Shown here piece by piece: positions 26,534 to 37,045 of a DNA stretch of 64,000 bases. The stretch is from Flaccisagitta enflata (Eukaryota): the NCBI GenBank assembly GCA_965153355.1, contig OZ231126.1:30504001-30568000 (forward strand), given 5' to 3'. Position 1 is the first letter of the stretch. Every line of letters begins with the position of its first letter. The notes beneath the pieces are model-generated. The model saw nothing but the letters and a program-made list of their open reading frames with translations. It made no database searches and was not told where the DNA came from. Made by a program: the position numbers and the translations under genes.

Positions 26534-29500
26534 ATGGCGCGTTTCGCGTTTTTCGTCGCTGTCTTGGCTTTTGTCTGCGTCGGAGTCTCTTTCAGCGCCG
26601 ACGAGACGTGGGATGAAATTGGTAAGGGTTTTGTTTTGGAAAGAAAGAAAGAATGAAAGAATGAAAGAAAGAAAGAAAGAAAGAAAGAAAGAAAGAAAGA
26701 AAGAAAGAAAGAAAGAAAGAGAGAGAGAGAGAAAGAGAGAAAGAGAGAAAGAGAGAAAGAGAGAAAGAAAGAGAGAAAGAGAGAAATAGAGAAAGAAAGA
26801 AATAGATTATAGAGAAAGAAAAAAATTGGTAAGGGTTTTGTTTTTGAAAGAAAGAATAAAGAAAACAAGAAAGAAAGAAAGAAAGGAAGAAAGAAAGAAA
26901 GAAAGAAAGAAAGAAAGAAAGAAAGAAAGAGAAAGGAAGAAAGAAAGAAAGAAAGAAAGAAAGAAAGAAAGAAAGAAAGAAAGAAAGAAAGAAAGAAAGA
27001 AAGAAAGAAAGAAAGAAAGAAAGAGAAAGGAGGAAATAATCCAGCGAAAGGCAGTCAGTGCAGTGGATTGGCCTCATCTACATCTAATCTTCGTTTACAG
27101 ATTTGAGCAAATTGTACCATCAACCGGCTGCCGTGATCGACCCCGCATTCTCCAAGCCCATCCTCGGGGGATCAGACGACCTCGACCACCCCAACAGACC
27201 CATCCCCGGGGGTCCCGGTGACCCCGACCACCCCACCAACAGACCCATTATCGGTGGTGATGATCACGATCGATTTGGGGAGTTGGATGACGTCACGATT
27301 CCCGCAGACGCGACGGCGCTACTCAACTGCTCGTCCATCGAACAACTGGAGAGACATCATCATAACAGTAAGACCATCATTGTGTTACATTGGTTGTCAG
27401 TCTGTTTGTTTGTTGGTTTGTTTGTTTGTTTGTATCCTGCCAATGCGATACTAAACTACTCTTCCATCGAACAACTGGAAAGACATCATCACAACAATTC
27501 GACCATCCTTGAGTTACTTTGATTGTCTGTTTGTTTGTTAGTTTGTTTGTGTCCTGCCAATGCGAACATCATCGAACAACTGGAAAGACCTCATCACAAC
27601 GGTAGGCTCCTTGAAAATGAAACTACATGCATATGACATTTGGACAACATTTTCAACTACTTTTAAGTTAAAACCATATCAATCAAAGTTTGTCTCCACT
27701 CTAATATTTTCGCTCCACTCCAAGAACGACTTTTTTTTTCCTTCCATTCTTTGAACCTTTCATTCATCCTCCGTTTCACGTTTTTGCCTGCCTTCCTTCC
27801 TTCCTTGCTTTACTCCTTTCTTTCTTAGTTTCTTAATGACGTCTTTCTCTTCTTTGCGATAATCTTCCTCTCACCTCTCTTTCATCTTCATTGCTCTGTT
27901 CTTTAATTTTTTTTTACCTCATTTACTTTTTATTTATTCGTTCATATTGATATTAGGAGCAACAAATTCAATACTAAGTAGTCATGTAAAGCCACAAAGT
28001 ACCATCTTGATGATACTTTTGTATACCAATTGTGTGCCTATAATAACCTATGTAATCGCAATTAACTTGTTCTGTTTTGCAGGCTGCGGTGTGAGATACG
28101 GATATTCGACTCATCATTGTCACTGCGATTGGGGAAATTGCAGAGAGCACAGAGCTCACTCGTGGTGTGGATGCCCATGGGGAAAATGCCATCAGGTATA
28201 CAAAGACAGAGAGAATGAATGAAATCAAAAAAGAAAGAAAGCAAGAAGGAAAGAAACAAAGAAAGAAACAAAGAAAAAAAGAAAGTAAAAAAGAAAGCAA
28301 AAAAGAAAGAAAGAAAGAAAGAAAGAAAGAAAGAAAGAAAGAAAGAAAGAAAGAAAGAAAGAAAGAAAGAAAGAAAGAAAGAAAGAAAGAAAGAAAGAAA
28401 GAAAGAAAGAAAGAAAGAAAGAAAGAAAGAAAGAAATAAAGAAAGTAAGAAAGAAAGAAAGAAAGAAAGAAAGAAAGAAAGAAAGAAAGAAAGAAAGAAA
28501 GAAAGAAAGAAAGAAAGAAAGAAAGAAAGAAAGAAAGAAAGAAAGAAAGAAAGAAAGAAAGAAAGAAAGAAAGAAAGAAAGAAAAAAAGAAAGAAAGAAA
28601 GAAAGAAAGAAAGAAAGAAAGAAAGAAAGAAAGAAAGAAAACAAGAAAGTAAGCATGAAAGAAAAAAACAAAGAAAGGAAGCAGAAGAGAAAAACAGCCG
28701 GGGAGTTTTTTTTTAAAAACTCAGAGCTTGATTGAGAGTTGATAACAAGTTAACAAGTTAACAAGTTAACAAGTTAACAAGTTAACAAGTTATAAATCAC
28801 AATCCACTTTGTTTCAGGACCGACCAAAATATTGCGCGTTGGTCTGGAAATATTGCGCTCATCATCATCACAAACCCGGAATCGAACCCCGAGGAGTTCA
28901 GCCAGCCAACGAAGCCGATGATTTCGTCCCCGTCCCATACATAGCTCCATCAACAACTACTGCTTATCCAACAACAACTGAAGCTCTAACCACCTCTGGC
29001 GCCCCCACCACCAAAGCACCCACCACTGCCGCCCCAACCACCAAAGCACCCACCACGACCGCTCCCACCACCAAAGCACCTACCACTGCCGCCCCAACCA
29101 CCAAAGCACCTACCACAGAAGCTCCAACACCGGCTCCAACTCACCGTCCCACACATCATCCGTCATACAGTAAGTCATCAGTAGTGTACTTGATTCTTAA
29201 GAGGGAAACAAGATGCGTCCTCTGCAAGATTTTTGATAAGGGACTATCCGACATACCGACGGAACGATGGTTATACAAAAAGGTATCAGTGGGTTTTTGA
29301 ACGATATGCAATTAAAAAAAATTCCAAGAGCCCCATATTTTTCTCCTTTCAGAATGCGGTCCTTGGGGTTATACGACGTTTGCGTGCATGTGTCCGATGG
29401 GCTCTTGTTATTCGAGACACAGACCCCATGGATACTGTGGATGCCCATACGGTTACTGCAAAAACGTAAGTTGCCATTACTGATAGTATGATACTTGATA

Positions 29501-35500: not shown

Positions 35501-37045
35501 AGAAGGCCATACGCTTGCAAATGGAGAGGAACGGAGAACCACGGCCACGGACCAGCACCCACACCAGACAACCACGACCACCACCACAGACCTGGTCATC
35601 ACCACCACCACCATCATCACCACCATCATAGCAGCTCCGAGAGTGGAAGCTCAGAGAGCAAAAGCTCTGAGAGTTGGGAAAGTGATGAAGATAACAATGA
35701 CAAACACCATCATGGAGGCAGAAAGCCAAGACCTGCATTTGATGAAGATCCCGAAGCTGACAAGTACGTGGAGAGAGAGAGAGAGAGAGAGAGAGAGAGA
35801 GAGAGAGAGAGAGAGAGAGAGAGAGAGAGAGAGAGAGAGAGAGAGAGAGAGAGAGAGAGAGAGAGAGAGAGAGAGAGAGAGAGAGAGAGAGAGAGAGACA
35901 GAGACAGAGACAGAGACAGAGACAGACAGGACAGGACAGACATAGAAATAGGATCAGGACAATCATGGGTTTTAAATTTGCTTCTCATCCCTCTTTCAGG
36001 ATGCAAATGATCTTGTACGGCGCGATGGGATTCTTAATTTGCTCTTTGGGATTCTTGTTCATGGTGACCATGTTCTCCATGATAATGAGACGAATGAGGT
36101 CAGTCCAAGATATTAGATGTAACTAAATAACGACAAAAAATAACGCCTCTTTTATTTGCGGTCATTTATCATCACTCATCACTTATTCTTCATTCAATTC
36201 AAAATTCAATTCAAAATTCAATTCAAAATTCAATTCAAAATAAAAAAAACTAACAAAAAGAATAAAAATGTCAATGAATCTACTATCTTGCTAAAAAGTA
36301 TATCAGCGAGGTGGGCTATAGTTGATTTTTTCATAAAAGAATACAAAAACATTTTAGAATGATAACCTGTAGTTAGTGTGACCTCTGCTGGCATCAACTA
36401 CTGCTATCATGAGCCTTGTTATACTATTGTAATGGAAATGTAAGTAAGAAGGCTTGATGTTCTCCCACACCGTGGAGAGCCGTGTGTTCATCTTTTAATC
36501 CTGACATCGACAGAGCATCTTCTTTGTATTGTACCATGGTAAAGAAATGGATTCAAGACAGGACTATTTCCAGACCAGGCCTACAGATTGACGCCTTATT
36601 CAAGTGCAGTTTCTTCATTTAAAGTTGTTTTTCTATGATGACTTATTGCTAAGAACAACAGAATTCAAACTGCAATTTTTTTGCCATTTTTGCCATGAGG
36701 TAGCAATCTTTTTTTGCTTCCCATTTCTAAACGGATTGAACGAGAGCTATGCGGTTTGCGCCATTGGATCAGAAATTCGATGTAGTTTCTGAATCTCACT
36801 GATTTTCCTATGTTTCTATTGCTTATCTATTAGTTATGCCCCATAATGCCCGCCGATATATATATTAGCAAGATAGTAGATTCCATAATCAAAGATTCAA
36901 TTTCATTCATCATTTCCACAGAACTCCAGCTGGCTCAACGTATCGTAACTTGGCAGCGACACCTGTTGAGCTCATTAGAACTCCGATGGAAAACTTCAAC
37001 CAAAAGCCAGAAGACAAAGAAAAACTCATTAAACACAATGAATGA
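26534..37045 (+). CDS. Type I membrane protein with signal peptide, five 8-Cys modules, mucin-like Thr/Pro tract, His-rich tracts and TM helix (713 aa, 13 exons)
   Basis: Exons 26534-26621, 27101-27367, 28083-28195, 28818-29169, 29353-29465, 29865-29934, 30053-30133, 33686-33925, 34508-34726, 35095-35192, 35486-35763, 36000-36098, 36922-37045. All introns are GT-AG, phases are consistent and the total is 2142 nt ending in TGA. Signal peptide [51 protein letters not shown] followed by RRMR; AATAAA at ~37077. Extra phase-1 exons in 30134-33685 cannot be excluded. Confidence 0.82.
28228..28680. repeat. (GAAA)n microsatellite
   Basis: Directly visible; similar tracts at 10390-10480, 25440-25800, 26640-27030 and 57720-57840. 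Confidence 0.97.
30333..30623. mobile_element. hAT-like MITE inserted in a (CA)n tract
   Basis: Ends CAGGGTACGACAAA / TTTGCCGGGCCCTG, with CA repeat on both sides. Confidence 0.6.
30624..31518. repeat. (CA)n (30624-30928) and (GA)n (31164-31518) microsatellites
   Basis: Directly visible. Confidence 0.97.
34212..34335. mobile_element. Tiny hAT-like MITE (related copy ~29502-29593)
   Basis: Ends TAGGGAT../..ATCCCTA with an exact 8-bp TSD CTATAAAG. It splits a dispersed repeat that is also present uninterrupted at ~21705-21850. Confidence 0.75.
34738..35030. repeat. (GTT)n/(GTTGTG)n compound microsatellite, intronic
   Basis: Directly visible, between exons 34508-34726 and 35095-35192. Confidence 0.95.

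Follow-up and report, generated by a model that had tools for sequence, protein, structure and literature searches.

An uncatalogued eight-cysteine extracellular module repeated in a chaetognath membrane protein and present in amphioxus egg-coat-type ZP proteins

EGF, LDLa, Kazal, kringle and somatomedin B domains belong to a class of small disulfide-rich modules that are shuffled as exons. The stretch analysed here, 64,000 nucleotides of the Flaccisagitta enflata assembly GCA_965153355.1 (contig OZ231126.1, positions 30,504,001 to 30,568,000; hereafter the window), carries on its plus strand a gene that encodes five copies of a module with eight cysteines apiece. Like the members of that class, this module has about 40 residues, an even number of cysteines, phase-1 introns and mosaic hosts; unlike them, it comprises two CxC-x4-C units with an invariant arginine and finds no Pfam or PDB fold match. 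Its range so far is restricted to chaetognath-type sequences and Branchiostoma. The AN1 zinc finger (ZFAND5/ZNF216; PDB codes 1wfl and 1wff), a cytosolic domain whose Cys/His ligand set includes two histidines, displays a similar G-x4-CxC-x4-C-x3-R spacing over about 30 residues, whereas the module has two further cysteines, lacks the histidine ligands and is extracellular.

Two described groups of proteins resemble the hosts of the module. In Branchiostoma belcheri, mass spectrometry of the egg coat identified five ZP proteins, of which four present an LDLa-vWFA-ZP layout (PMC3543715, partial text). These four, BbZP2-5, have the layout of the amphioxus proteins P0025, P0027, P0028 and P0031 described below, which are close in length to BbZP5; in the available part of that article their SMART annotation comprises LDLa, vWFA and ZP only, and no domain is named between LDLa and VWA, where the P0025-type proteins hold the module. 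The window protein differs from BbZP2-5 in that it lacks ZP, VWA and LDLa domains and is membrane-anchored. With cargo proteins of the AP adaptor complexes, such as LAMP1, CD63 and TGN38 (PMC11185636, partial text), it shares a short tail with YxxPhi and acidic dileucine motifs and a Ser/Thr/Pro-rich luminal stalk, while its luminal part consists of the new module, histidine tracts and a Kazal cassette; the likeness is one of features.

The eight-cysteine module and known families

An earlier note, made from the DNA letters alone, had proposed that 28083..35520 encodes five repeats of an extracellular, possibly undescribed eight-cysteine module with an internal two-fold CxC..G.C...RP repeat. 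All five copies were located on the plus strand, and all display the spacing C-x9/10-C-x-C-x4-C-x8/10-C-x-C-x4-C-x7-C. The pattern of the first six cysteines matched five times in the six frames of the window and not once in any of 100 block-shuffled windows. The copies are as follows.

28085-28195 and 28818-28835, plus strand: copy 1, split by a phase-0 GT-AG intron
29355-29465 and 29865-29882, plus strand: copy 2, split by a phase-0 GT-AG intron
33694-33819, plus strand: copy 3, unspliced
34516-34647, plus strand: copy 4, unspliced
35100-35192 and 35486-35518, plus strand: copy 5, split by a phase-0 GT-AG intron

The two-fold repeat is equally evident, in ten of ten aligned copies; the unit duplicated within the module of about 42 residues is CxC-x2-G-x-C-x(3-5)-RP. 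In alignment A3 the only invariant residues other than cysteine are the Arg of the first RP and the Pro after cysteine 6, and on the sequences this Arg is the residue most likely to serve in binding or stapling. Copies 1-4 contain six to eight aromatic residues, copies 1 and 2 are followed by extensions carrying extra cysteines, and no vicinal CC pair was observed across the 30 module copies listed. A phase-1 intron lies 2-8 bases upstream of the start of every window copy (5/5), and the next junction past the module and its linker is in phase 1 in copies 1-4 and in phase 2 in copy 5. This phase-1 start, together with the unrelated architectures of the hosts, is that of an exon-shuffled class 1-1 module. 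The module is best explained as an independently folding extracellular domain; its location follows from the signal peptide and single C-terminal transmembrane helix of the window protein and, independently, from an amphioxus copy lying between LDLa and VWA. Its luminal position in chaetognaths and amphioxus alike, with a cysteine count that is even and nearly invariant, makes four disulfides the most likely means by which it is held together.

Comparison with Pfam-A (24,736 models) revealed no match at the gathering cut-off for any member of two alignments (0/15 and 0/14; best E 0.023), and the full-length orthologues likewise gave no module hit. Traces below threshold were observed for EGF_STAB1-2 (E 0.023), FXa_inhibition (E 0.11), EGF_4 (E 2.1) and Chitin_bind_1 (E 4.9), as well as for fibrillin (E 0.13 over 21 residues). 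Such traces, and a search scope of Pfam plus PDB, would fit a distant relationship to a known small disulfide family (EGF-like, somatomedin B, hevein or similar), from which the module has diverged too far for profiles to recognise it. Each Pfam trace, however, derives from one or two of the 15 members, and the SMART annotation of the amphioxus ZP proteins mentioned above recovered no such family. EGF-like domains have a six-cysteine pattern and a two-hairpin fold; this identity was rejected on the eight cysteines of the module, the one or two contributing members and the blank Foldseek search described below. Somatomedin B and hevein domains carry a vicinal CC pair, which the module lacks; there was no somatomedin B hit in Pfam, Chitin_bind_1 was traced in one member, and these identities were rejected too. 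Descent from a described family is thus considered unlikely.

The best PDB sequence match was the AN1 zinc finger, with E values of 0.011, 0.062 and 0.14 using alignments A1, A2 and A3, respectively. Taken with the repeated CxC motifs and the His-rich flanks, it could indicate that the cysteines bind metal in an AN1- or CXC-like zinc cluster and form no disulfides. Against this, the match weakens with a deeper alignment and spans positions 1-34 only, the AN1 histidine ligands are not kept, AN1 chains present in the PDB were yet not recovered by the fold search, and the module is luminal in both lineages with an even, invariant set of eight cysteines. AN1 identity was therefore rejected (E 0.011-0.14, no conserved His ligands, luminal topology), and a metal cluster of any such kind is highly improbable.

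AlphaFold models built from 15 sequences are compact, the best (predicted local distance difference test score, pLDDT, 87.2; predicted template modelling score, pTM, 0.53) displaying isolated β-bridges and two short helical turns. The earlier note had suggested a fold comparison as a check; no chain was retrieved by Foldseek at E<=10 among 350,542, and none by VIA-align at Z>=2 among 48,161 chains. With a domain this small and irregular, empty searches are no proof that the fold is new. The ESM Atlas contained no model for either of two queries, and its feature matches (gallidermin, scorpion short toxin and LDLa clusters, 0.75-0.78) fell below the lead threshold and were discarded. No description of the module was found in the literature on chaetognath cysteine- or histidine-rich proteins or on amphioxus ZP proteins, in a survey that covered few subscription journals. 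Judged against Pfam, PDB, the ESM Atlas and this literature, the module is uncatalogued, which supports the suggestion of an undescribed domain, and we regard it as very probably a genuine mobile module.

The amphioxus copy

A profile of 15 module sequences was scored against 1.84 billion representative proteins, revealing seven hits at E<=0.001: four known orthologues of the window protein, P0024, P0025 and P0026. P0026 was rejected as spurious; it is a tandem-repeat open reading frame that matches profile positions 9-30 only, with 10-14 bits per repeat. P0025 is Branchiostoma floridae XP_035691781.1 (UniProt A0A9J7LZ97; module E 8.8e-5 among the 1.84 billion proteins) and contains LDLa (86-117), VWA (194-366) and ZP (390-635) domains, with the module at 121-162. 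The alignment of this region is gap-free, its eight cysteine positions are the same as those of copies 3 and 5, and it shares 21 of 42 residues with copy 5, of which 13 are not cysteines. A profile made solely from the window's five copies gives it 40.2 bits, a value reached by none of 2000 cysteine-fixed shuffles (maximum 27.2). In the reciprocal comparison, with the amphioxus copy as query in the host genome (G000), eight of eight candidates were module copies. A separate search with just the amphioxus region recovered only that region, as one of three candidates. Profiles built from the copies, another check that the note had suggested, thus recovered both orthologues and a Branchiostoma ZP protein, and homology between the chaetognath and amphioxus sequences is supported by the shuffle and reciprocal controls.

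The module is also present in B. lanceolatum and in two hybrid assemblies. P0025, P0027, P0028 and P0031 all display the LDLa-VWA-ZP layout over 668-678 residues, with the module between LDLa and VWA. BbZP5 of B. belcheri, with 673 residues, is closest in length to P0025 among the proteins in the available part of its description and fits its layout; from layout and length we infer that P0025 may be the BbZP5 orthologue, BbZP2 being the other candidate. The amphioxus copy contains no aromatic residue, and presents 68% identity over 25 residues to one copy of a paralogue on host contig C7 (see below).

That the two lineages share the module by horizontal exon transfer or by convergence, and not by descent, would be consistent with its patchy range, in which Branchiostoma is the sole named taxon, and with this 68% identity. 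A further search by words, with 13 hits out of 2112 candidates, yielded no named taxon beyond Branchiostoma. A 43-position profile, however, needs about 37 bits to surface in a search of 1.84 billion proteins, such that diverged copies in other phyla would escape. Furthermore, B. floridae, B. lanceolatum and the two hybrid assemblies all carry it as a native copy, and convergence is unlikely because the match is gap-free and the shuffle controls fall short of it. A tree of 30 copies (44 columns, two well-supported branches) cannot root the family or place the amphioxus branch. Overall, a history other than descent is judged distinctly improbable.

The host gene, its transcripts and its relatives

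The host genome is that of a chaetognath, as identified by phylum-specific spliced-leader genes: a 22-base core taken from SL2.0, a spliced leader of chaetognaths (PMC2481426, Table 3, partial text), occurs in it 177 times without mismatch, against none for the reversed control, and in the single copy inspected a GT donor follows the core. Most of these matches lie in tandem arrays of spliced-leader genes, observed on contigs C4, C5, C6 and C7 with a spacing of about 0.64-1.4 kb.

The module gene extends from 26534 to 37045 on the plus strand and comprises 14 exons, with 13 of 13 introns GT-AG, in a single open frame of 760 residues. While the earlier note had placed the copies rightly, the gene reaches past 28083..35520, and a Kazal exon, the cysteine-bearing extensions of copies 1 and 2 and the membrane anchor had been overlooked. 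A predicted signal peptide and one transmembrane helix give the encoded protein a type I membrane topology. From the N-terminus it presents the signal peptide, an acidic Pro/Gly region, copy 1 and its extension, a His tract, a Thr/Pro stalk, and copy 2 with its extension; these are followed by a Pro/Thr linker, the Kazal domain, copy 3, a His-rich spacer, copies 4 and 5, a stalk, the transmembrane helix and the tail. The features of the gene are as follows.

26534..26621, plus strand: exon 1, with the start codon, encoding the signal peptide; hydropathy peaks over residues 1-25; the N-terminus of P0003 matches
27101..27367, plus strand: exon 2, acidic and Pro/Gly-rich, with one cysteine and an N-glycosylation sequon; 47% identity to P0003
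28083..28195, plus strand: exon 3, cysteines 1-7 of copy 1; joined to exon 4 in RNA runs X4 and X8
28818..29169, plus strand: exon 4, end of copy 1, extension with extra cysteine, His tract and Thr/Pro mucin-like repeat
29353..29465, plus strand: exon 5, cysteines 1-7 of copy 2; RNA joints on both sides in 3/3 covering runs
29865..29934, plus strand: exon 6, end of copy 2 and extension with two more cysteines; RNA contigs
30053..30133, plus strand: exon 7, Pro/Thr linker; RNA contigs
32038..32178, plus strand: exon 8, Kazal domain, phase 1-1 cassette exon; Pfam and RNA contigs
33430..33650, plus strand: two decayed partial duplicates of the exon 9 start, in intron 8; DNA alignment, with a stop and a frameshift
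33686..33925, plus strand: exon 9, copy 3 (33694-33819) and His-rich spacer; 5' end in run X1
34508..34726, plus strand: exon 10, copy 4 (34516-34647) and linker
35095..35192, plus strand: exon 11, cysteines 1-6 of copy 5
35486..35763, plus strand: exon 12, end of copy 5, then His-rich and Ser/acidic stalk
36000..36098, plus strand: exon 13, transmembrane helix; hydropathy, and kept in nine distinct orthologue tails including that of the window
36922..37045, plus strand: exon 14, cytoplasmic tail and stop codon, with YxxL at 36941-36952 and DxxxL[IV] at 37013-37030

Copy 2, which begins in exon 5, is the best conserved (40-41 of 43 residues identical to orthologues). Exon 8 matches Kazal_1 (PF00050) with E 1.5e-12 and 47.7 bits against a cut-off of 21, has the six cysteines of a Kazal domain, and leaves the frame open when omitted. 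The decayed duplicates of exon 9 that sit in intron 8 indicate that exon duplication is recent; a decayed tandem duplicate of the end of exon 2 is also observed inside an intron, at 27445-27510. His accounts for 26% of the spacer after copy 3 and 25% of the His/Ser/acidic stalk, and Ser plus Thr for 42% of the Thr/Pro stalk. The cytoplasmic tail comprises about 45 residues. In nine distinct tails YxxL is kept in all nine and DxxxLI, near the C-terminus, in eight, the ninth having DxxxLV; within the retained dileucine motif the central residues differ. YxxPhi and [DE]xxxL[LI] are cargo motifs of AP adaptor complexes (PMC11185636, partial text), and both are found, at the level of sequence, in the window protein.

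RNA evidence derives almost entirely from marine metatranscriptomes. Part of 33686-35770 is present in 20 of the 21 listed runs, from 10 studies; the best run share of that stretch is 0.36, for an exon fraction of 0.40. Contigs were placed for four of the 21 runs, on 28700-30290 only, where X1, X4 and X8, from three studies, cover exons and raw-read run X21, with no reads in this interval, constitutes no test; the contigs carry no information on strand or expression level. Contigs of X1, X4 and X8 connect exons 4-5, 5-6 and 6-7 at the predicted junctions and in the predicted frame, the RNA check of the splice model that the note had called for. The internal intron of copy 2 is joined in all three covering runs and that of copy 1 in two of three (X4 and X8, which reach back into exon 3), the ends being loose. 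Exon 7 continues into the Kazal exon in X4 and X8 and directly into exon 9 in X1, and the Kazal exon is thus a cassette. Junctions 3' of exon 9 are based on splice signals and spliced homologues; for the intron of copy 5, splice signals are accompanied by homologue tblastn pieces that end at 35192 and restart at 35486. Among 13 differences between RNA and genome, the two in copy 2 are silent and five of the 11 in exon 4 alter a residue; these are too few, and partly within a repeat, to be weighed.

With a profile of the window copies, eight proteins were found among 27 candidates. P0003, P0011 and P0017 are full-length orthologues with the same layout and four to five copies, and contain no Kazal domain. 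The window copies are identical to those of P0017 at 30/42 to 40/43 positions, compared with 8/38 to 22/38 in the short linkers, and copies cluster by position across orthologues. P0007 comprises a discoidin-like region and a kringle (Pfam) followed by 281 residues that match the end of P0003 exactly. The join corresponds to the start of exon 10 and recurs in P0020 and P0021, from separate records; it looks like another isoform, the alternative being a chimeric assembly. The window itself yielded no exon of kringle or discoidin-like type. In the host genome, a discoidin/F5-8C-like domain of about 100 residues occupies at least 20 places (20 of 46 matches, e.g. L016 and L017) and is barely detected by Pfam (E 0.0086 for one of two tested).

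Four queries of the host genome revealed one other module gene, counts being lower bounds. Three copies share one exon of this paralogue (L004; G000:C7:34685176-34685637, minus strand). The third of them ends in the following exon, from about 34683726, which also contributes a transmembrane-like stretch and an acidic tail. About 29 kb of upstream sequence did not reveal the 5' exons, including the one in which the first copy begins. P0024 is a divergent 243-residue fragment with two copies, a shorter C3-C4 loop and Trp/Pro/Arg-rich spacers; it represents either a third gene type or another lineage. The hosts of the module are therefore the window gene, the C7 paralogue, the kringle-bearing P0007/P0021 and the amphioxus LDLa-VWA-ZP proteins.

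Proposed role and window neighbourhood

Taken together, these observations favour, as the probable reading, an uncatalogued shuffled extracellular module in a membrane protein that would traffic to the surface or to granules. The host would be a type I membrane glycoprotein whose modules are strung on O-glycosylated and His-rich spacers and may bind a protein or matrix partner multivalently, through the invariant Arg-Pro and nearby aromatic residues. His tracts are expected to coordinate Zn or Cu at pH 8 and to lose the metal on acidification, which here would correspond to seawater and to acidic compartments, respectively. YxxL and DxxxL[IV] would make the protein an adaptor-complex cargo cycling between the surface and endosomes or secretory granules, where it may anchor or carry a secreted coat, with the Kazal cassette as an optional, predicted protease inhibitor. 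In amphioxus, the module would be an accessory domain of an egg-coat-type ZP protein. The chaetognath epidermis is rich in secretory granules (PMC13330366, partial text). As a whole, this mechanism of a coat anchor or carrier cycling through adaptors is put forward tentatively, at somewhat less than even confidence.

A different role has been considered for the same His tracts and for the aromatic residues of copies 1-4. Annelid jaws are hardened by His-Zn. By analogy, the protein could be a structural part of zinc-hardened chitinous grasping spines or teeth, its aromatic modules binding chitin and its His tracts cross-linking via Zn; chaetognath spines are chitinous and contain zinc-rich granules (PMC11836706, partial text). 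A bulk hardening protein, however, would presumably need neither a transmembrane anchor nor sorting motifs, the amphioxus copy lies without aromatics in a ZP protein, and the module matches no chitin-binding family. A spine component is accordingly rather improbable.

Several observations weigh against the favoured reading of a shuffled module in a trafficking surface or granule protein. The diverged amphioxus copy of P0031 scores 29.0 bits, which one of 2000 shuffles reached. The amphioxus copy lacks the Trp and the first aromatic residue of the chaetognath copies, so a shared ligand is not assured, and if the module is ancient, it is strange that Branchiostoma is the one named taxon among the protein hits. 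Good matches to P0017 also extend to the mucin stalk (54/74) and the His/Ser stalk (52/81), partly through low complexity, and the tail of the C7 paralogue is unrelated to that of the window protein. Further stretches of the tail are as conserved as the sorting motifs, and such motifs are short. On the structural side, the five AlphaFold models span pLDDT 74.5-87.2 at pTM 0.53, the model of full-length P0017 (pLDDT 33) is uninformative, and fold searches have little power for a 43-residue domain that is nearly devoid of regular secondary structure.

A bolder reading, which we consider unlikely, would make the module an ancestral bilaterian domain with a disulfide fold absent from the PDB that has stayed recognisable in chaetognaths and amphioxus and in both helps to build granule-stored extracellular coats, among them the egg coat. 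The window protein would then be a pH- and metal-switched surface receptor of interchangeable function, with a swappable phase-1 slot occupied by the Kazal exon here and by the discoidin-like and kringle unit in a relative.

New mobile extracellular modules of animals are now seldom found. The kind is familiar, a small cysteine-rich shuffled extracellular domain, but this one is uncatalogued and not confined to arrow worms; it is backed by spliced RNA and purifying selection, occupies an unannotated gap in an amphioxus egg-coat-type ZP protein, and occurs in two phyla that straddle the protostome-deuterostome split. It appears to be an old constituent of the surfaces and coats of animal cells that has escaped notice. 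Roughly 2,250 gene families are described as chaetognath-specific (PMC12460157, partial text), and a gene likely to be counted among such families can contain a part shared with a chordate. At 43 residues, the module is suited to direct disulfide mapping and nuclear magnetic resonance.

Elsewhere in the window, the minus strand at 39509-42262 contains open reading frames of 384 and 458 residues with no hit in Pfam, which by their motifs look like a Penelope-like retroelement, a GIY-YIG-like part preceding one that resembles a reverse transcriptase. At 61926-63998, also on the minus strand, two open frames (462 and 181 residues) with poly-Gln and acidic tracts probably represent exons of an adjacent gene. 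Repeats of a dispersed family, whose conserved ends flank variable 18-21-base minisatellite cores, occur at 20390-24180 and elsewhere, and the family is also observed near the C7 paralogue.

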